From Sphyrna mokarran (taxonomy: Eukaryota): DNA of 64,000 nucleotides. Shown in pieces: positions 13,320 to 27,072 of this stretch. The DNA is taken from positions 12,462,001 through 12,526,000 of the forward strand of contig JAGIQG010000016.1 in NCBI GenBank assembly GCA_024679065.1, given 5' to 3'. How positions within the stretch are numbered: the stretch's first letter is position 1; each line of letters opens with the position of its first letter. The notes below the pieces were generated by a model, which did no database searches, had not been told where the DNA came from, and worked only from the letters and a program-made list of their open reading frames with translations. Both the position numbers and the translations under genes were made by a program.

Positions 13320-14140
13320 TATGGTAATATGGTCAGCGTCTGATTTTTTTTTTGTGATTCGATATCCTAACTTAAAGAATTGGGCACAGTAAAATCAAAC
13401 TCCAGCCATGACAGACTTGATGAAAGTCAAATTTACAAAAAGATAGAAACATGTCTGGACCTGGCCCATCAATCACACATAAAAGATGCGCTACTCAGGC
13501 ATGACAGAAGATCACCGCACCCTATTGAAATGCATTGGCCTATTGTTAGAAACACAGATTGGATCAGACTTTCTGTCACCTAGAATTTCTTTTCGGGCAA
13601 CAAGTTACTAATAACAACAGCATGGAGGTAGACACCTGGGAACGAGGCCCAGCGTCCTATGAGATGGACATCAGTAAACCCACTGGGAATTGGGACCTCC
13701 CTCTGGAGATCTCATTGGACGGAAATCAGAGACATTTCTGGAAAGGGAAGCAAACAGGCATAAATGTAAACATCCCAGACAAAACAACAGAAAAGACTCC
13801 ACGAAGAAGTTCACATTTACCATCAGATATAAAGAAACGGGGGGGGGGGGGGGGGGGGGGTGTGAGTTGCCATTGAGATTCACTTTCGTGACGACGGACC
13901 AGAGAGACTCGAGGAATCGGACCTGCAGTTTAACCAAAACATTTTTGCTGTAATATACTTCAAACGGTGGGATCCTCTTTGTTGCATTTGGATAATTTAA
14001 TGGTTAATATTTCTATAACTAACGAACTTGTTAGATCTTTACTTTTATTTATTATTTGGCCATCTTGCAATCAACAGCGTTGGGATAGAACCTTCAGTAA
14101 GAAAACTGGTCGAAAGTATCTGAGAGTTACAGTTACAACA
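13320..14140 (+). repeat. 5' LTR
   Basis: Colinear with 26257-27072 (shared ATTGAAATGCATTGGCCTATT, CTGTCACCTAGA, CTCATTGGACGGAAA, GAATCGG.CCTGCAG). Starts TATGGTAATAT, ends GTTACAACA. Contains a G22 run at 13839-13860. Confidence 0.88.
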
Positions 14141-14141
14141 A

Positions 14142-14155
14142 TTGTCACCCAGACG
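14142..14155 (+). promoter_or_regulatory. Degenerate primer-binding site, most similar to tRNA-Trp
   Basis: TTGTCACCCAGACG immediately after the LTR end matches 11/14 to TGGTGACCCCGACG. Confidence 0.55.
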
Positions 14156-14481
14156 CTCCTTCGATAAGTAGTGATGTGTTGCTCCGAAGTCGAACACTCA
14201 ACGTGGTATTCTCCAACACTCCACTTGAGCCTAATTTAAGAGATTAGGTTGCCCCACACGACAGACTGTCTTCAGTGAGTGAATGATTAATACAGATGCG
14301 AATATTCAATTAGGCCATAAACCCAGTGCCTGTTTATGATTGCGAGGGGTACAAACTGTTGTTAGAATTAGGATAGGCAATTGAATTTGGGTAAAATCTA
14401 CGAAGGGAATGTACTGAACGCCGGGCCCTTACCGCGATGCTTTATTCACACCCACGGAACGAATCATAAAAATAAATAATT

Positions 14482-15060
14482 ATGGACAGTTATGCTGAAT
14501 GGGTTGAAGTTCTCTGTTTATGTTTGAATCATAATTGGCCGAAATATGTGAAGTAAGGTGATACCCCGAAACAGTATTTTGGATCAGAGGGAGAGAATTT
14601 ATGAAGTCATGACGATAAAGGAGTGAGTAAGAGGGCTATACAGCTCAGGAAGGCGATTACAATCGCCTGATGTCGAGAAAAGCGGAGATTATCCGTGTTA
14701 AACATGGCAGAGAGAAAACTGTAATTAGAGATAGACACACGGGAGGAAAGGAACCAACTTATTCCGATACACATGAACGAGTTCCAGTCTGAATGTGATA
14801 ATGCCCACCAAAAGGCAAAACGCACTGTCAGTGAGAGAAGGGCTGCGCTGTACAGTTGCAGGAAATTAATCATAGATGCAGTGACCTGTAAGCTGCACTA
14901 AATTTTTTTGCAACAAACAGGAAAACAAAATACTGCCCATGCAACATAACAATCGGAATGCCTGCGTGACATTGACGATTTCTAATCACAGCTAGCTATT
15001 CAAGGGCGTGCAAGTTGTGCATTCACCACCAAAACAGGGGGGTATGAGCCACGGGTACAG
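14482..15060 (+). pseudogene. gag: ERV gag remnant (matrix-like N-terminus plus coiled-coil region); capsid/nucleocapsid not seen
   Basis: Reads MDSYAEWVEVLCLCLNHNWPKY (C-x-WP as in retroviral MA), then a charged helical stretch with stops. Position is between PBS and protease. Confidence 0.5.
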
Positions 15061-15089
15061 TGGGGGGGGGGGGGGAATTTAGAAATCGG

Positions 15090-15440
15090 TGCCTGCAGTT
15101 ATGCAATGGTTAGCATCACTGTGACCGGGAATCCCTCCTCCGTTCACACTAATCAAAAAAAAAAGACACCACTCTAATCCTACATCCATTCCGGAAAACA
15201 AAGTTGCGCCCCTAATCTGCCTCTATCCCGGAGCACTCAGTATGGTATATTAACAGGGGGGCTTAGAAACAGACTAACTGGAACTTAGACTGGGTAATAT
15301 AATATGCCATCACCCAGCTATCTTGGTTAAAATCCAGCCAAAAACAGAACACAGTCTAGGGAACGATTTGATGACGAAATGCAAAATAATTGTATCCATC
15401 GAAGTGTTTTTTTTAGCTAGTAAGAAGTTGTAAATGTCCT
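15090..15440 (+). pseudogene. pro: ERV aspartic protease remnant
   Basis: ...ELRLGNIICHHPAILVKIQPKTEHSLGNDLMTKCKIIV resembles the C-terminal LGRDLL motif. The DTG active site is eroded. Confidence 0.6.
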
Positions 15441-15466
15441 GTCGAAGTGGGCTACCCCCAGGTAAA

Positions 15467-15602
15467 AAGAACAAAGAATGAAGAACAAAATAGCACAGGA
15501 AACAGGCCCTTCGACCCAACGAGCCCGCGCCGCCACCCCGATGTTCCCACCTCTACCCGTGATCCTTGCCCATGTTTATAGATCTATGGATTAAAAACCA
15601 AA
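15467..15602 (-). mobile_element. 3'-terminal fragment of the V-core-bearing CR1 family, inserted in the ERV pro/RT boundary
   Basis: Reverse complement closely matches 45498-45629 (GATCTATAAACATGG..GGGAACATCGGGGTGGCGGCGCGGGCTCGTTGGG.CGAAGGGCCTGTTTCC). Confidence 0.88.
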
Positions 15603-15689
15603 TATGAGGTATGAAGACCGAATTTCTACTTTTAAAGTATTCTGGATCAGGGAATAGAAATGACGGAGTATCCTGAAACAAAGATATAT

Positions 15690-17303
15690 TAGCTCAACAC
15701 ATAATGGCAATCACCAGTCGCAAGCATGACTGTGACGGAATAACAGGGGAGGTAATCAAAGAAGGACCTTACCCTAAATCCCAAAGACAGCACGGCTTCC
15801 ATAAACAAGCCGACGGGGAAGTGGTCAAGTTGTTTAGCGTTTTATTAAAACAAAGGCTTCTGCACTCCGTTGCTTCACCTAACAATCCTCCATTTGACCG
15901 TTAAGGTAACCACAGTGCTCCCGAACGTTCACAATTGATAATCAAGCCCTGACTCAGATCATCCCAATAGTGGTGACTAGCCCAGAAGCCATGATGAAAC
16001 AAGCCGTGCGTGCATTTTTTTTTTCAGTGTTGGACAACAGTAAAAGCTTCTGGTTAATTCGCTTAGATCATCACTGTGGACATATATTTGCCTTCATGTT
16101 CAAGACACAACAGTGCATTTGGACATGTTTATTACAATATTTTCATACCTTTCATTTTATATTTCACCAGCGCTTAGAAAGCTGCTTGTAGCGATTCTCC
16201 AAACCTGAACATTGATTCCAATGCGTAGACCATCTCCTCTTATAGGCTGCAACAAGGTAGGAACATCTCAAATTATTGGAGGAACTGCTGAACCACTCAG
16301 GACAATAAGGTTAAAGATAAATCCCTAGAAAGCCCAGATCATGAGACCATAGGTCTGCTACTTGGGTACAGGAGTGACTAAGCAGAACCACGAGATATTA
16401 ATAAGCAAGTAGAATCTGTAACACGCCTTCCTCTACAAAGAAAATGAGCTAGGTACACTACTTTCTCGGCTTAGTGAAGTACGAACATCGACGGTTTCGT
16501 CACTAAAGCCACTCCCCTGTCTGAACTTCTTTGAAAAAAAAAGGTCCAGACTATGCGACACACACAAGTAGTCTCAGAACTAAAACAATCCGTGGCACAA
16601 GCCAGTGCCTTTTGGATACTCAACCCTGAATTCCCCTTCGTCCTTGAAGTAATGGCCACTGATAGCACACTCGCCACTGAGCTCCTGCAACAATAGGACG
16701 GCTCAGCTCAATCACTTATGCTTCCCCCATACTCTGCGAGAACGATTTTTTTTTTTTTCCGGGAAATGCACGACTTTAGCTGTAAAGTCGGCTGGCACCC
16801 TTTCGTTGTACTTATTGAACACCCCTCCCCCGCTCAACTGCTCATTAACGGTCGAATTAAAGATGGGACGGTTAGTCAAAACTGTAGCATAGTGAACATT
16901 CATATCAGAGTATAGAGATATTCGAGCGAACATACTCGGCTCTCCGCATTCCTGGAAGGCAACGCAACTTATGGGTTCGAGTCTCATGAGTGCCAGGTTC
17001 TGGCAATAAAATACCCCAAGTGGCCTTTGTTTGCCAAAAAAAAAAAGATGAGAGGAGCCAGAGGAATCAGCCAAACCCAGGGTCAGGACAGTTTAAACAT
17101 TTTTTATAATGGGTCATCCGTGGTGAAAGACGCAAACAGGAGGACATGATGTGAGATATACACGGAAGACCAAGAAGCCAAGCCCCAAAGCGAGGTTGTC
17201 TTAAAACTTACACATGGATGCACAGACTGCAGAACTGGCAGCAATAGCATAGGTAGTCAGCCACCCTGAGCTGTGCCCCAGACATACACTCCAATAGTAT
17301 ACG
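15690..17303 (+). pseudogene. pol: ERV pol part 1: RT, tether (degenerate RNase H) and N-half of RNase H
   Basis: RT: KHDCDG; FSVLDNSKSFW..FAFMFKTQQCIWTCLLQYFH (ORF 15970-16191); QCVDHLLL (QYVDDLLL) at 16219-16242. Tether: PEFPFVLEVMATD...QLLINGRIKDG. RNase H: IFYNGSS at ~17099, AQTAELAAIA at 17220, IHSNS at 17284. Confidence 0.88.
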
Positions 17304-20300
17304 AACATGAAACCTTGGAGCAGGAATAGGCCATTTGTTCCCTCAAGATTGCTCCATCATTCAATAAGGCCATAGCTGATATTTTCATGAACTAGCTCTG
17401 CTTACCGACCCGCTCACCAGAATCCTCATTTGCATTGTTTGTCAAAAATGCATTAACTTTACTTCAAAAAAACATCCAATAGGTAGCCTCAACTCTTTCA
17501 TAGTGCACGGAATTCTACAGACTTACAACCCTTTGTGTGAATAAGTTCGTCATCAATTCAGTTGTAAACGTGCTCCTCCTTATTTTGAAACCATGCCCGC
17601 TACTTCTACTTTCACTCGCCAGTGGAAACGTTTTCCCTGCTTCTACCTTATCTATTCCCCACATCATCTAATACGTTTATAGATCCCCCCCCCCCCCCCC
17701 CCGCCCCCCCCACCACCACCACCCATTCTTCAGAATACAGGGAATAGAATCCCAATCTACTCAGTCTCTACTCATATGCCAAGGCTCTTAAATCATGAGT
17801 CAACTTAGTTAACCTTGTCCGCCATCTCCTGCCCCACACTCCGCCTCCGCCCGCCCCCATCTCCACCAATGCTGCTGAATTGTTCGTCTATCCTTTTTCA
17901 TGTAAGGAGAACAATACTGTACACAGCACTCCAGGTGTCACCTCACCAGCAAGTTATACAACTGCAACATAATCTCGTTGTTTTCAAGCTCCATCTCTCT
18001 TGCAATGGAGGACAATATTCCGTTTGACTTCTTAATTACCCGCTGTACCTACAAACAGATTCCTTGTGATATTGCATAAGATCTGCAGGTCTTTTGAAAG
18101 CAGAATGCTGCAATTTTTACCATTCAATTAGTAATTAATGTTGCTGTATTCTTACCAAAATAGATGACCTCACATTTACCAACATTGTACTCCATCTTCA
18201 GACTCTTGGTCACTCACTCAGATGATCTATATCTCTTTTCAGACTTTCATCTCTCCCTACACAGTTTGGCCTGCCACACATTTTAGTGTTATCTGTGAGT
18301 TTTGACACACTACACTTGGTCCACATCTCCAAATCACATATAAATCGTCGACTATTGTGGTTCCAACTGTAATTCCTGAGTCACACCACTAGTCACTGAT
18401 CGCCAAGCAGAATAACACCCATTTACTCACCCCTCACCTTGTTCTTTGTTAGTTAACCAATACTTTATCCATGTTAATGCCTGAACCGTAATACCATGCA
18501 TATGGATCTTATGCAGCAGTCTTTGTTGCGGCATCTTGTCAAATGTCTTCTGGAATTCCAGTTACACCACGTACACAGGTTTCCCATTATCCACTGCACA
18601 TGTAATGTTCTCAACGAACTCCAACAAATTAGTCAAACATGACTTGGCCTTCATGAGCCCACGCTGCATATTACCAATGGGACATTTTTCTTTGTCTAAA
18701 TATGTCACTATTTTTTTCTTGAGGATAAATTAATGCATTTTCCTTAATAGGGAAGTTAAACTCACTGGCCTATTGTCACCTGCGTTTTATTTATGCCATT
18801 TAAAAAAGAACTAACAACAGTGTAACATTTTCTGTTTTCTGAGTCCAGCGAATTTTGGTAATTTTCCCCGAATGCATTTGCTATTTCCCCTGCCATCTCT
18901 TTCAGTACCACGGTACCTTTCGTCAGGACCAGGACACTTGACGACATTTGAGCCCCATTAGCTTGCCCAAACCTAACTCTTCCACGATACTGATCATGAT
19001 TAGGTCTTCGCCAACCACAGCCTTCCTGACACCAATTTTTGTCAAGTTACTTGTGTATTCCACTGGGTAGAGAGATTCAAAATACCTATTCAATGGCTCA
19101 GCATTTTCTCTTTTCCAGTTCTTGCATCCCCCTTCTCATCCTCTAAATGACCCATGTTTCTTTAGCCACTCTTCTTCGTTTTATATATTTGTACAAAGTA
19201 ATGCCATTTGTTTTGTATTGTGAGCCAGTTTACTCTCGTGTTCCAATTTATTGTTCTTTGAATCTTTTTTCCGTGGCTTTCTGCTATCTTTTAAAAATTC
19301 CCCAATCTTCTAATTTCTCCTAATCTTTGTCACTTTGCGTGCCTTTTTTTCTTTCAATTTGATACTCTATTTCCTTAGGTATCTATTGTTGTTTATCTCA
19401 TTTTCTCCAGTCTTTCCTTACCATCCGTACATACTTTGCTGAACAATGTGAAAGATAATTTTGAATGTCCTCTAACTGTTCCTCAGTTATCCCAACAAAA
19501 TTTTTGTTCCACTCTACTTTTGCCAACGCCTCCTTCATCCCTTTATAGTCTTCTTTGTTTAAGCACAAAACACTGGAATTGACTTTCCCTTCTCAGGCTC
19601 CATCTTTATTTGAATTCAATCAGACTATGATCGCTTCTTCCGAGAGGATCCCTAACTGTAAGACCATTAATTATTACTGTCACATTGCACAGGACTAGGT
19701 CAAGGATAGCTTGCTCCCTCGTAGGTCCCATTATATACTATTCAAGGAAGATATCGCGGGAACATTCTATGATCTTCTCAAGGCTGCATTGACCAATCTT
19801 GTTTGGCCAATTGATAAGTAGATGAACACTGCCCCCACCCCCCGCCATGATAACTGCTATACTAGTTTTGCATGCATCTGTTATTTCCATGTTTGTTTCT
19901 CACCTCACTGCCTTGTCATTATTTGATGGCCTAGAGACTATCCCTATCGATGACGTTTTATCCTTGTCATTTCTAATTTCCACCTAAATGGATTCAAAAA
20001 TATTTTCTGCAGAATCTTTATCATCTCTCATTGATACCATCCTTAAATAGCAGAAATGCACCTGCTCCATCAGTTTTCAAGTCTGTCTCTCTGAACAGCT
20101 TGATATCTCTAGGTATTTAACTCCCAGTCGCGGTCATTCTGCAATCGTGTCTGTACAATGGATGCCAAATCATTTAATTTCGCAATGCTTCGTGTTGTCA
20201 ACTCATTCATCGTGTTTTGAATGATAAGGGCATTCAGATAAAGTTCCCATATGTTTGTTTTTTGTATTTTTTTATATCCTATTAACAACTGATTTCTCCT

Positions 20301-21606
20301 TTCTTCTATCTTTTTCCCCCTGATTTTTTGTGCAGTTGGAGCTGTTCCCCATGTTTTGTCCTTGCTCCCTCCTTCTCGGGCTCCTTATATAAATTCCTAT
20401 CCCGTTGCACATTAGTTCAAACCCTTCTCAAACGCTCTAGCATGCACTCACATAGGATATCTGTCCGAGCTCTGCACACGTCTAGCCCGTCAAATTTGTG
20501 CAGGTCTCACCTCCCCAAAACTCATTCCAATGCCCCTGATACCATCTCTTCAGCCAGGTAGTTATCTGACGTATCCTGACATTTCTACTCGACTCTGACT
20601 TGAACTTGACAACAGCATTACTGCTGAAATCGCTACTTTTGAAGTCCGATTTCTTAACATTCTTCCTTGCTCCCTACGTTTTGCTTTTCGGATCGCATCT
20701 ATTATTTTTTTGTCCTCTCCCTTCAGAATGTCCAGCAGCCGCTCTGATGTATCATAGACCCTAGTACCAGTGAGGCATCGTATCATCCTGGATTCCCGTT
20801 TGCAACCACAAAGATACGTCTGCCTATTCCCCTTACAATTGAATCCCTAGTAATATTACACTAGCAAATGTGTTTTATCCTTTTCCTCTGCAACATTACC
20901 AATTATGGTACACGGAATTTGACTGCTGCTGCTTTCCCTGGAGACGTCATCCCCCTTAACAGTATCCAAAGCTGTATATCTGTTTTTTCAGGGGAATGAC
21001 CACAGGAGACTCCAACACTACCTGCCTATTTCTCTTGCTCTGTCTGATGGTCACCTATTTGCTTCCTGCTGCGGAGTTTGATACTGCTGCTTGACCACTC
21101 TCTAAATGTGCTATCCTCCATACTCTTAGATTCATGGATGCTCCGCAGCATCTCTAGTAGCTGGTGCAGCTCTGAAACTCAAGCTTCCAGGAGCTGTAGT
21201 TCAAAACACTTTCTGCACACGCGCTGATGCAGGAGTTTGCAATTGGCCACAGGTTGCCACAAGTGACAAGAGTAGGTGGAGCAAACCACAGCTTGGAGCT
21301 CTCTTGCCATGACTTACCCTTCAAATTAAACTTTTGAATGATGTTTTGTTCGAGGTTATATCTAATGTTCTAGGGTCCTTCCTTCCTTTCCTTGTTACAA
21401 CCAAACATAACCATTTGAAAGCATAACCAGAAAAATTAAACAGAAATAATATTCTTATGTACAACAACAAAAACTACAATGCCAAGAGCAAAAGGGAAAA
21501 AAAAAACTTTTTGATTAATCAACACTCTTACTTGTAGCCTCTGCTGCCTAAAACCATGCGTTCACCCACATCCAAATGCAGTCGTCTCAGCCAAGCAGCA
21601 ATCAGG
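17304..21606 (-). mobile_element. Near full-length CR1 LINE (5' UTR, ORF1 with Cys-rich N-terminus and SGNH-esterase-like domain, ORF2 EN-RT, 3' tail), degraded
   Basis: ORF1 start MARELQAVVCST at 21310 (minus). RCLTGTRVYDTSERLLDILKGE in ORF 20562-20786. EN at ~19550-20230 and RT at ~17500-18950. The tail ..GGCCTATTCCTGCTCC..CATGTT is at 17304-17345. Confidence 0.92.
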
Positions 21607-21930
21607 ACGTATGTCTGCAACAGTTTAACGGACTTCGTGCCAAGATGAGGAGCAAGGACATAAATATCAGCAGAAGAGAAACCTCTGTCATTAGCCTCAC
21701 TGTTAAGTTTTATTTTCCAGACTCCTGACCACAGGTATGGTACAATTAAATTAAAGTTTCACCACGGCACCTTCCCAATTGGGAACATAAGAGCGGGTGA
21801 ATTAGCCAGCCAGGGTGCTCGAGAGGGGTTTTACTTTTGGCATCTAATAGCTAAAGAGCGAATTGAAGTTTTGAATGTTAGCCAGACCAAGGAGGGATAC
21901 ACCCCTCCTCCTTTGAACATTAGCGAGATG
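21607..21930 (+). pseudogene. pol: ERV pol part 2: C-half of RNase H
   Basis: TYVCNSLTDFVPR*...SAEEKPL...IKLKFHHGTFPIGNIRAGELASQGAR matches DS-x-YV ... KVKAH ... GN-xx-AD-x-LA. Confidence 0.8.
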
Positions 21931-22240
21931 TTCTTGTCCTTAAGGACGGCCTATAGCACGAGGGGACACAGGTTTAAATTAAGGGGTATGAGTTACAGGA
22001 CGGATATCAGAGATAGGTTCTTTACTCAAAGAGTGATTAGGGAGTGGAATGCCCTGCCTGCAGCTGTTGTAGATGCGCCACGTTTGGTGGCGTTTAAGAG
22101 GTTAATTGCTAAGTATATGGAAGAGAAGGGAATGGTTTAGTTTGGAGGGGCATTGCTTTTTATTTTGGTCGGCACAACATCGAAGGCCGAAGGGCCTGTT
22201 CTGTGCTGTATTGTTCTATGTTCTATGTTCTATGTTCTAT
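21931..22240 (+). mobile_element. Young CR1 3' fragment inserted between ERV RNase H and integrase
   Basis: TRGHRFKLRG..FFTQRVIREWNALP, then GGCCGAAGGGCCTGTTCTGTGCTGTA and a (TTCTATG)n tail. Confidence 0.93.
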
Positions 22241-23300
22241 ATGTGACCTCGAGCAGAGAACATGACCAGATCGATCTCCAAAACGACGATGTCCAGAGCC
22301 ATCGCGGCCAGGAACCACAAATGAGCGCATCAAAGTATTGTGCGGTTCTCAAACCTAGAACATTGTGTGTGGCATTATGCTGATAATTGCATCATCTGTG
22401 CACAGAACAATCCCGACAAATCTACCTACACAGGCGAACTGAGGCATACTTGCCCTGTGGAAAGACCCCGGACTAATTTCAAATTGGTTCTATTGGGCTC
22501 CTCCCTCCGGAATGCGACTTTACAAATACATCCTGGTCATTGTAGACACTTTCAGTAACTGGTGGACACTTCTTCAACCCGCACGAGCACGGTCAAATTC
22601 ACGGCTAACATCCCAGTGCAGTACATATTCAGTCATTGTAACCTGCCACGCAGCATCGACTCGGACGAAGGCACTCACTTCATTGCAATGGTAATGCAAG
22701 GGGTAATGAAATAGTTCAGGATAAATTAGCAATTCCACTTTGTTTACCACCACCAAAAACAGCGGTGTGTTGGAGAAGATAAACTGTACCGTAAAAGGTA
22801 GGATCTTTAAGACCATTCAGCAGAACAATCAAACCTGGAACAATGTCGTCCTCTTCTTATTAATGAGAGTGCGCAACTCTGTATCTATTTCCACTGGATT
22901 CACGCACCGGGTCCTCGTGATGGGGCGATCCTTGCGAGAAATTGAACGTTTATTCGGGCTGAACATGTCCGGGTCCGAGTTCACGGCCCGCACTCAAGAC
23001 AATGTCGTGAGAGCATCCTTGACAGCATACAGAACCGCACAACGGGATGCAGCCGTTAAGAAAGGGAAGGGGAAGCAGCAAAATAACGCCTACTTTGACG
23101 AGAAGGTGAAGTTCTTCGAATATGAGATTGGACAAGAGATAATGCTCAGTGTCTTCCAGGCTGGTAAGTTCCAACCCCCCAAGTAAGCCGGACCCTATCC
23201 AGTGGTAAATAAGACCAGTCCCTCTGAACACAAGGTCAGAGTAGACTACAAGAAAACCAGTTTGCATCTGGTCAACCAAATGAAGGCATTCGGCTCCCAG
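22241..23300 (+). pseudogene. pol: ERV pol part 3: integrase (HHCC, DDE core, GPY)
   Basis: HRG...NCIICAQNNP; YKYILVIVDTFS; IDSDEGTHF; SGVLEKINCTVK (ORF 22740-23186); PK*AGPYPVV; HLVNQMKAF. Confidence 0.9.
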
Positions 23301-24450
23301 CAAAATTTTGACCAATACGGCGTTACCCTGGAAGGAACCATTGAGGAACATGGGATCCTCAACCTCACCACATCCCACTGGACCTTAACCGCAATCCACA
23401 ATCTGTAACAGAGGTTATTGACCCCCAACCAGAACTGCAGGACCGGCACATACATCCTTGGTTCCCACGCTAATTTAAAGGGCTTCAGGAATAAAGCCAT
23501 GACCTAGGGCAACCCAACTCAAAGGATGGGGCACCAGCAGGCCTTCCCCAACACGACGTGCTTGGCAATCAGACTCCCAGAACCGTTTGACCCAGCTCTC
23601 ATTACCAGAGGTGCTAACACCGAGGGCGTCTGACAATAAAAGCCCTCATACTTTGGTTCCCTCAACTAAGGAAGTATCATGGCATCAACGTCCAAGCTGT
23701 AAATTGTTTCATCCACTCACTCCACGCATCACCTAATCGAAAACGGCTTCTTGTCTATCCACATTATACTGCACCATAATAATCTGACACATTTCAGTTT
23801 GGCTGTGCCTTGAAAAATCTATTTTTATACTGTCCCATAGTTCTTCAACGACAGGGACACGTGCCACAGACCCAACATATTATTTTCACCTTGTGCAAAT
23901 TCCTTACTCCACTCAACCGCATAAAACACTGATTGCCAACGAAACCTTTGCATGACACTAGGTATTAATACGAACTGAGAGGTGCTACCTAGATCTCTCC
24001 CTGAATGAACTACATATCTACATATACTTATCTGCTATCCGATATATCTCGTCGTGGATAGAACCACAGACACCACACCAACGGAAGACTAGACTATGAG
24101 CCTCCGATACACCGGATACGAGCAAATTTGAGGGTTGCATCCTGTAGTATACCCCAAAACGAGTGTCACATATACGTGTAACAACCAAAAAGTGATCTAC
24201 AAGGAAGTTAATAAGAATTCTCATTATTGCTCCCCAATGACAACCCTCGCTCGTGATTGTTGGCTTACACTGACTATGGATATATAGAGCTATCCTGTCC
24301 AACCATAAAAAGAGGCATGAAATTAGGAACAAAGTGTCCCGGTAATGTTATTCAGAACGTTACATATACTACGAAATTAGGAAATCGTTAAGACCAACTG
24401 TTAGCATACCAATGCGTATTTTTCGGAAACCACCACAAGGCACCACAAAT

Positions 24451-25950
24451 GGGTTGATACCAAATCATATAGGGAAAATATTATTCGACAACATTCACTA
24501 CAAATTGGCACCAGTAGTGGTAGACTTAGCTGGAACACAATGATCAGACTGGTGTGCCTCCCCGCTTGTAAAATGGTCGCTCCAATTGACCCAAAGACCA
24601 CTAAGCTGAAAGCTTGGGACACACGAGGAAGGATAGACGTCCAGATCAAAGGACCACAATATGAGGGAAATCCCTAATGATATGGTGACGGCATATGGAG
24701 CGGGACAATCCACCATTAACACACTTGATCTGGCTGATTTGGATAACTTGCTGAGAGTCCTAACACACCAAGTTAAAGAGGCATTAGACCCCAAACTAAA
24801 TGGAACTGCTCGTCAACATGCTGAGAAAGATTTAGCTGAGAACAGTACCAGTTTCCTTCTGGTTTCTGTACCAAAAGGAGGTGCCAAAGTATTAATCACG
24901 TCTTTGACGGAAAAATGAGGATGATGCCAGACAATAGAGCCGAACCCTGTGTAGCATTTATGGGCAATGGATGATCGAGCACTTTAAACAAAACTTCGAT
25001 CATGTTCGTAGGAAGTAAGTTCTATCCGGGAAGAATGGCAAACAGGTTGAAAATCTATACCATGTAAAAATACACTCCAATATCACTAACTGTCAGTTAC
25101 AGCAACAGAAAAGGTTTGGTCTATCGATAGCGTTGGAGGAACCCCGGGGATCGCATGAGGATGGTGTTTGGGATTCCAGAAGCACTAAAAGATAAGGTAG
25201 GGTTGAGATTATTTGAAACAAAAATATTGGAATCAGTAAAGGGGGATATGGATTCAGAAAGGAGGGTGGTTTACAAAGCAGGTTAGCTCGTAGGCACCAA
25301 CCTGTGGATGTGTAAACATAGACAAAGTTGTCCTGTGCCCATATCCGATGTATAAAAATGAACTTGCACTGTGTAGATTCAGGACAACTATTGACTTAAA
25401 CTTTACACGGGAAATTCGAGTTTTAGAAAGGACGTTCACCGGCAGGTTACAATGGGGGGTGGGTGGGTGGGGAGGGGGGAGGGTAGACTACTGTATTGCA
25501 ACGTCGCCAGAAAATTGCCATTCTTCGACAGCCATTTGCAATATCCACAATACTGCATTTTACATTAAACCACACGTTCCCGCCAGGATAGAATTGAGGT
25601 AGTGAACATATAAAGAAATGTTAGTAAGGAATTGGGACAAAGCTTGACGGAGCACTTTGCAAACAAAAAATATATCGGGATCACACTTCTACCCGAAAAA
25701 CGTCAAGAATTTCGGACTCAATCACAGCAGACACGACCTTTGTCAAAATAGCACAATAAATGTTTTTTTTTTAAAGAACATTAGTGCAATTAGAATCATA
25801 TATGGTGGCAGGATTTCGGGTATTGTGGTTCCAATGTCCAAATCCATCCATAGGTCCGCATGTTGTCACCCATGGCCGTAATAAGAATCCTACTTATGAA
25901 AGTGTACCTACCGGTTCTCGTGTTTAAATTTGCTCAACAGAAAAAATGAA
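24451..25950 (+). pseudogene. env: ERV env remnant (class I fusion protein); may begin further upstream (~23400)
   Basis: GLIPNHIGKILFDNIHYKLAPVVVDL. Eroded cleavage site, then fusion-peptide-like EIPNDMVTAYGAGQSTINTLDLADLDNLL (ORF 24661). Cys-rich CSIYGQW, VLCPYP, YCIAT..C..C. Membrane-proximal HIWWQDFG..HP followed by a hydrophobic anchor at ~25860-25930. Confidence 0.72.
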
Positions 25951-26239
25951 TTTCTCCAACACTTGAACATGTCAACGGTCATCCAACATCGGGAATGTCC
26001 AAACAATAAAGTGCTTTTATACTCGCCCATCTATATTGTAATATGTTCAGTCATTTGTTATTTTGTACTGTTCATTGCTTTGATTTGTATTTACCCAATT
26101 GACGTTTCTTTTATTGTTTTTTTCTTCATTTCAATTTGTTACAATCATTATGGGTTAGAATGACACTGTCAAGCCTGGTATTGATTGCTTGTTGAGATGT
26201 TTTGGTGAGGGTTGTGTATCCAGTTCGCTGATGCTCAAT

Positions 26240-26256
26240 GGATAAAGCAGATAGAA
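26240..26256 (+). promoter_or_regulatory. Degenerate polypurine tract
   Basis: GGATAAAGCAGATAGAA (14/17 purines) directly before the TG that opens the 3' LTR. Confidence 0.5.
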
Positions 26257-27072
26257 TGTGCTAATATAATCAGGGCCCAGTTTTAAGTCAGATTATTTGG
26301 ATATCTTGAAAAAAAGAATTTGACATGTCAAAATCAAACATTATCAGAACTCACTTATGTCTGAATTGGTAAAAGTCAAATATACAAAGTCACAAACATG
26401 TCTGCGTGAGGCCCATCATCACATATCAAAGATAAATGCACTCTACTGCAGGTGTTCATTGCAGCCCATTGAAATGCATTGGCCTATTTTCAGAAGTCCA
26501 TATCAGTCAGACTCTCTGTCACCTAGATTTCCTGCGGTTACCTTATCTGACAAAATGTCATGTATAAGCAACAGAATGGGGAGCGGGCCTCAGTGCCGGT
26601 TAGGCAGATATCAATTACCCACTGGGTATTGGGACACCTCTTCCCGAGACCTCATTGGACGGAAAGCAGAGATGTTACTGGAAAGGAGAGTAAGCAGTAG
26701 GATAAAGGTAAACATTTCAGGCGTACCAGCAGTGAAGACTCGATTTTAGTGACATTATAACCATCCGGAAAATTGACCAGAGAAGGAAGGAAAGCAAAAG
26801 CTGCCATCGAAACTTACCGTCTTGACGATGGTCCAGAGGGACTCAGAGAATCGGGCCTGCAGATTAGCCAGACTTTTTTGGAGTTTCGTATACTTGAATC
26901 TGGAGTATCCTCCTGTTTAATGTGGGTAACTTATAGTTGAATCAGGCTTTTAGTAATAAACTTATTCGTGTTTACTCGTACTTATCCTTGCCCATCTTGC
27001 AATTAAAGACACCAGGATAAAAGTTTGAGTCAGTAAACTGGTTGAGCGGATCTGAGATTTAAAGGTACAAGA
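26257..27072 (+). repeat. 3' LTR
   Basis: Starts TGTGCTAATAT and ends GGTACAAGA. Colinear with 13320-14140. AATAAA at 26955-26960. Confidence 0.88.

Follow-up and report, generated by a model that had tools for sequence, protein, structure and literature searches.

The replication of snakehead retrovirus (SnRV) is primed by tRNA-Arg. SnRV-like endogenous retroviruses (ERVs) are described in the elephant shark in the available part of PMC4422223, and the accessible text of PMC6001957 reports clade Huo, the class III group of SnRV, from all vertebrate classes. Lokiretroviruses were not found in the six chondrichthyan genomes screened in PMC7947760. Here we analysed a provirus located in a 64,000-nucleotide stretch of the Sphyrna mokarran genome (G000:C668:12,462,001-12,526,000; the window). 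We consider it quite probable that this provirus is a dead copy, organised as long terminal repeat (LTR)-gag-pro-pol-env-LTR, of a multi-copy ERV family that likely belongs with SnRV in clade Huo, and that both age and a locally fast mutation clock likely lie behind its excess divergence.

The two colinear repeats of about 820 bp that the original prediction had taken for LTRs aligned end to end, with a local score of 508, compared with no more than 44 in 30 shuffles. Their global identity was 72.2% over 771 columns, corresponding to a Kimura two-parameter (K2P) distance of 0.35; their ends were set at the points where matches to sister LTRs begin and stop. Pol proteins of frogs and coelacanth mapped colinearly onto the + strand in the order reverse transcriptase (RT), tether, RNase H and integrase (IN), and a sister envelope protein (Env) mapped at 24021-25946, bearing out the proposed retroviral order from primer-binding site (PBS) to polypurine tract (PPT). 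The description "full layout" holds for this order only, most of gag being deleted (about 1.3 kb with the capsid and zinc knuckles). Sister proviruses run gap-free across the sites of three long interspersed nuclear element (LINE) insertions, the limits of which lie close to those first proposed; removing the insertions leaves 9,017 bp, in agreement with the predicted 9 kb. The features of the locus are as follows.

13320..14140, + strand: 5' LTR, 821 bp, with decayed TG...CA termini (LTR alignment, sister LTR limits)
14142..14159, + strand: decayed PBS (10/18 matches; family primer tRNA-Arg(CCT))
14160..15135, + strand: leader and 5' gag remnant, in which no start codon was located (colinear with sisters; homologous gag frame at 14725)
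15135..15241, + strand: site of the ~1.3 kb deletion, capsid and nucleocapsid gone (sister comparison)
15241..15461, + strand: protease remnant, C-terminal part (its counterpart in sister copies aligns to frog/coelacanth protease)
15462..15603, - strand: insertion 1, young LINE 3' fragment (not in sister copies; 92% to another window repeat)
15686..16409, + strand: RT with frameshifts and stops (Pol protein mapping, RT tree)
16487..17000, + strand: tether (degenerate first RNase H), right limit approximate (Pol protein mapping, weak Pfam match)
17100..17300, + strand: RNase H, first part (motif positions; PF00075 in sister copies)
17301..21608, - strand: insertion 2, 4.3 kb LINE splitting RNase H (RVT_1 E 9.7e-8; sister junction)
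21609..21828, + strand: RNase H, second part (Pol protein mapping, 21610-21828)
21951..22236, + strand: insertion 3, young LINE 3' fragment with tandem tail (sister comparison)
22331..23291, + strand: IN remnant with C-terminal GPY motif (Pol protein mapping)
24005..26015, + strand: env remnant, right limit approximate (sister Env mapping)
26240..26256, + strand: decayed PPT (sister comparison)
26257..27072, + strand: 3' LTR, 816 bp (LTR alignment, sister LTR limits)

The provirus holds no intact gene. A comparison with a sister copy revealed 27 frameshifting indels and 13 stops in its env, and the furin site is decayed; the ten PBS matches were counted without gaps. A protease DTG motif was not matched within the window, and an Rfam scan of the window returned no match. 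As anticipated, the provirus is easily missed at the protein level: Pfam analysis of the window's 18 reading frames detected only LINE RT and one weak tether match (E 0.024). The LINE of insertion 2, which we take to be CR1-like, has 7011 candidates in the genome.

The search for paralogues that had been proposed was carried out across the 2.77 Gb genome and yielded candidates for the LTR (950, of which 40 were scored), for env (113, of which 40 were scored) and for pol (18, each of them scored). Sister copies have TG...CA ends, and 4-bp target-site duplications are perfect in three two-LTR proviruses and in several solo LTRs. Their PBS matches host tRNA-Arg(CCT) at 15-17 of 18 positions in five of six copies and at 12/18 in the sixth; the source of this primer match is a tRNA-Arg gene cluster (CCT and TCT) at G000:C927:4.37-5.49 Mb. 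Sister reading frames contain RVT_1, tether (PF17919), RNase H (PF00075), rve and zf-CCHC domains, the latter as two CCHC knuckles in Gag, and every pol copy seen in the family is broken. All five of the env-bearing copies that were mapped (L114/L025, L111/L024, L072/L038, L123/L107 and L120/L103) lack pol and have a gag-to-env junction in common, suggesting a subfamily without pol that spread with gag and env and was likely copied in trans. The window locus is no lone record but a poor copy of a large family, and SnRV-like ERVs have already been described for cartilaginous fish (PMC4422223).

The relatives of the family support, indirectly, the shark host proposed in the original prediction, which is therefore likely. 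Over 69 residues, the window's decayed RT is 64% identical to an RT fragment from Mustelus, and the Env relatives that could be named (12 of 20 looked up) belong mostly to sharks and rays, namely Mustelus, Scyliorhinus, Chiloscyllium, Heterodontus, Heptranchias, Pristiophorus and Rhinoraja, with one frog in addition. No viral contig matched the Pol patterns of the family. Literature searches, which reached few subscription papers, gave no title or abstract start on the family or on a co-opted shark env. Five family LTR matches lie at G000:C1548:108.8-109.14 Mb, three of them about 33 kb apart, and copies L002, L003 and L007 have near-identical left flanks, likely through tandem segmental duplication.

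To place the family, an RT tree of 28 rows was built. It excluded P0007, P0017, P0019 and P0023 as well as five loci, of which four were short or redundant and the fifth was a Gypsy fragment. The family, including the window piece, formed one group (100/99), separated by a 100/100 branch from nine Gypsy-type rows. A class I (gamma/epsilon-like) assignment was rejected, because the four class I rows of the same genome formed a separate 100/100 group. These outgroup rows belong to a distinct young class I (MLV/epsilon-like) ERV family (L172-L175; for example G000:C738:57,660,413 and C905:965,861) whose open pol frames span 1166-1456 codons.

An env-bearing Ty3/Gypsy (Metaviridae) element, the label that such a fragmented locus might attract, is almost certainly the wrong reading. 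The first IN match of the locus was a Gypsy-type Pol (25%), and one Env homologue has a weak Baculo_F match. Sister frames, however, hold a tether plus a separate RNase H and thus do not have the Gypsy layout; the 100/100 branch argues the same way, as does RT identity, which reaches 42-45% to vertebrate Pols with dual RNase H and 21-30% to Gypsy-type matches. The predicted ERV nature of the provirus is upheld by the domain layout, the tree and a predicted F-like Env. The best Pol matches are the NYNRIN-like Pols of frogs and coelacanth (P0003-P0008), which account for the 42-45% identity and have an equal domain order; NYNRIN-like is a database name and these are not classified viruses.

The RT of the family points towards SnRV. 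The signature LPQGFHxSP is common to both, and matches counted by eye for a sister RT, using alignment rows from the accessible supplement of PMC7947760, were about 71/136 for SnRV, about 51 for Loki-Pma, about 52 for HERV-L and about 53/140 for simian foamy virus. In RT motifs and by-eye identity, the family thus comes closest to the group of SnRV and other clade Huo ERVs, which includes CmiERV lineage I of the elephant shark (PMC4422223, PMC6001957). The cartilaginous-fish host range of this group is also found in the family, as is the tRNA-Arg primer of SnRV, and an undeleted family copy measures about 10.5 kb, compared with 11.2 kb for SnRV.

A lokiretrovirus was our first reading and would be the first in cartilaginous fish. 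The accessible text of PMC7947760 lists features that the family shares: the LTR-gag-pol-env layout, tether plus RNase H, an RxKR-type site and an F-like Env. Dual RNase H, the predicted F-like Env fold and best Pol matches named NYNRIN-like (frogs, coelacanth), the Loki IN being CGIN1-related, are consistent with this assignment. It was dropped on the published RT rows, where the by-eye count favoured SnRV and the Loki rows consulted read CPFGYSNSP (Pma, Lca) or TPFGYANSP (Aro), unlike the LPQGFHxSP of the family and SnRV; PQGFHNSP had no occurrence in the searched portion of the PMC7947760 supplement. Furthermore, PF00523 was not matched among 41 Env rows (top 25 families listed), and in the accessible parts of the same source Pyxicephalus and Pelodiscus, which provide close Pol matches, are unmarked in the Loki table, one Loki Env has a pneumovirus-like fusion peptide unlike that of the family, and lokiretroviruses are not reported from Chondrichthyes. 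We now regard this assignment as very unlikely.

A foamy-like or otherwise unplaced class III lineage outside the SnRV clade proper is a somewhat stronger competitor, albeit an improbable one. Foamy Pol gave the best Protein Data Bank (PDB) matches of the family RT, and foamy Env the best PDB sequence match of the Env profile (E 0.021). SnRV RT does not occur among the PDB matches, so that ranking cannot favour SnRV, and by eye the RT is about 38% identical to foamy as opposed to about 52% to SnRV. To our knowledge, foamy Gag lacks CCHC knuckles; the family Gag has two. The spuma protease domain PF03539 was matched nowhere, controls included, and is hence uninformative.

The Env of the family was characterised from an open env of 685 codons in a sister copy, which encodes a furin site, heptads, a cysteine-rich region and a transmembrane (TM) helix. 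HMMER identified 55 Env relatives and a word-based protein search none. A model computed from a 41-row alignment (pLDDT 65.6, pTM 0.48) matched the F proteins of respiratory syncytial virus, human parainfluenza virus 3 and Newcastle disease virus (E 2e-9 to 2.5e-8). It also matched predicted models of walleye epidermal hyperplasia virus 1 (WEHV-1), walleye dermal sarcoma virus (WDSV), baculovirus F and feline foamy Env. A single-sequence model was unusable (pLDDT 36.5), single env sequences gave only chance matches in PDB, and an Atlas search returned one match at 0.82, which we treat as a lead only. The family Env is therefore predicted to fold like paramyxo/pneumovirus F, the class Ib type of fusogen to which foamy Env also belongs (available part of PMC11468914). 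As in foamy Env and the F proteins, the TM ectodomain is long, at about 400 residues, and rich in cysteine; the family Env differs from them in its length of 685 residues and its far shorter N-terminal subunit, with 9-15% sequence identity. P0034 (Chiloscyllium punctatum, 739 aa) and P0039 (Pelodytes ibericus, 723 aa), both of which carry the annotation of a hypothetical host protein, are Env homologues that look full-length and further candidates for young proviruses or co-opted envs.

The LTR divergence had been read as evidence of a very old insertion. This reading is not supported as it stood, since LTR distances in five sister copies were 0.12, 0.15, 0.16, 0.20 and 0.21 and the whole region surrounding the window is over-diverged. 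In the C668 interval 9-14 Mb, 73% of matched repeat bases fell at 60-80% identity, compared with 18-22% elsewhere. At this divergence the transition/transversion ratio (ts/tv) was 1.27 in the region and 1.83 elsewhere (1.09 and 1.62 without CpG sites); for young repeats it was 1.73 and 1.76. Since young repeats show no difference, the regional excess is not an assembly error. The observed/expected CpG ratio (CpG o/e) was 0.49-0.77 in 21/21 samples from C668 9.0-14.2 Mb and at most 0.45 in 19/20 samples outside it on the same contig. This CpG-undepleted region includes the whole window and ends abruptly on its right side, between 14.2 and 14.5 Mb. The region of about 5 Mb around the window thus likely has a fast mutation clock, and C668 ~9.0-14.2 Mb is likely a germline-hypomethylated, fast-mutating domain. 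The Fisher tests used here treat sites as independent.

The alternative, an insertion of the same family that is genuinely about two-fold older with no local rate effect, is doubtful but deserves more weight than the rival classifications. The LTR distance at the window is the highest of six pairs, CpG transitions saturate with age and so lower ts/tv, and low-turnover regions can keep older repeats. However, the two window LTRs are no closer to each other than to the family (0.30-0.33), and they part after a common stem of just about 0.05, with a further 0.16-0.19 accruing on each; the LINE inserted later is equally outlying, at 0.24-0.28 from 11 relatives that are themselves 0.11-0.16 apart. 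The ts/tv deficit at matched divergence persists without CpG sites, and the CpG o/e of the window env is 0.68, as opposed to 0.31-0.39 in three sisters. No absolute date can be defended, because the insertion would be about 800 My old at the shark rate that PMC4422223 assumes and about 80 My old at a mammalian rate.

Several observations weigh against the combined reading of an SnRV-like family copy in a fast-mutating region. The target-site duplication at the window locus retains two of four equal bases. Placement near SnRV is a by-eye count, the RT tree having been built without SnRV, foamy or lokiretrovirus references, and in that tree the family joins the NYNRIN-like Pols of frogs and coelacanth as sister with only 80/80 support. 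The 136-residue Env tail and 205-codon 3' open reading frame (ORF) given for SnRV in the available part of PMC12193657 were not seen in the family, where a tail of about 30 residues and an env-to-PPT distance of about 250 nt leave no room for a 3' ORF of 205 codons. The F-like fold is too widely shared to classify the virus, and also fits lokiretroviruses. Finally, the clock test used control loci near copies of the family, and scoring was limited to 40 candidates in each search.

Taking the SnRV-like family reading, the history of the locus may have been as follows. An enveloped virus primed on tRNA-Arg(CCT) would have used an F-like (class Ib) fusion protein to enter cells. Its integration would have produced 4-bp duplications, and it would have spread through the germline; a gag and env form without pol would also have spread, likely copied in trans. 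The window copy would then have lost 1.3 kb of gag, taken three LINE insertions and decayed, with age and likely also a faster local clock contributing to its excess divergence.

Among 63 scored candidates, the only full-length open env, that of 685 codons, was found at L022:1746-3866 (-) (G000:C557:55,778,001-55,780,121). It has no breaks, compared with 6-29 in 17 sister copies, and a branch dN/dS of 0.15. Its private changes comprise 8 silent, 3 replacement and 0 stop changes, against 14, 25 and 6 in the nearest sister (p 0.017); the comparison was significant in five of six pairings, that with L097 giving p 0.22. In the same copy, pol is broken, with three private frameshifts over a length of 1.7 kb, and the two LTRs are 0.12 apart. 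From pol, about 6-7 breaks are expected, or a chance of about 1e-3 per copy for an intact env; an LTR-based Poisson estimate (3e-10) was rejected because LTR indel rates exceed those of pol. We tentatively hypothesize that the shark host has domesticated an F-like env gene, kept under purifying selection while pol decayed, although we rate this as a possibility rather less likely than its opposite. If true, the gene would be syncytin-like or a restriction gene. Against co-option, the low dN/dS may stem partly from the viral phase, a later env replacement by recombination is possible, and chondrichthyan genomes hold a mean of 80 long env ORFs each (accessible part of PMC12813294). Contigs from sequencing runs of three organisms cover the L022 env only as short pieces of the multi-copy family, and the runs listed as holding env include no RNA entry. 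No co-opted env with a class Ib fold was found in literature searches, the scope of which did not extend to the supplementary env list of PMC12813294.

Collectively, these data describe one more family within an already recognised group of fish ERVs. The predicted F-like Env fold in this family weakens the use of F-like Env as a lokiretrovirus marker. The data also indicate that LTR dating is biased here: within one family, the two LTRs of a copy differ by 0.35 in a CpG-undepleted region of about 5 Mb and by 0.12-0.21 elsewhere, so that ages of single shark loci can be off by about two-fold. Many sharks are live-bearing, and the L022 env provides a testable co-option candidate in this lineage.

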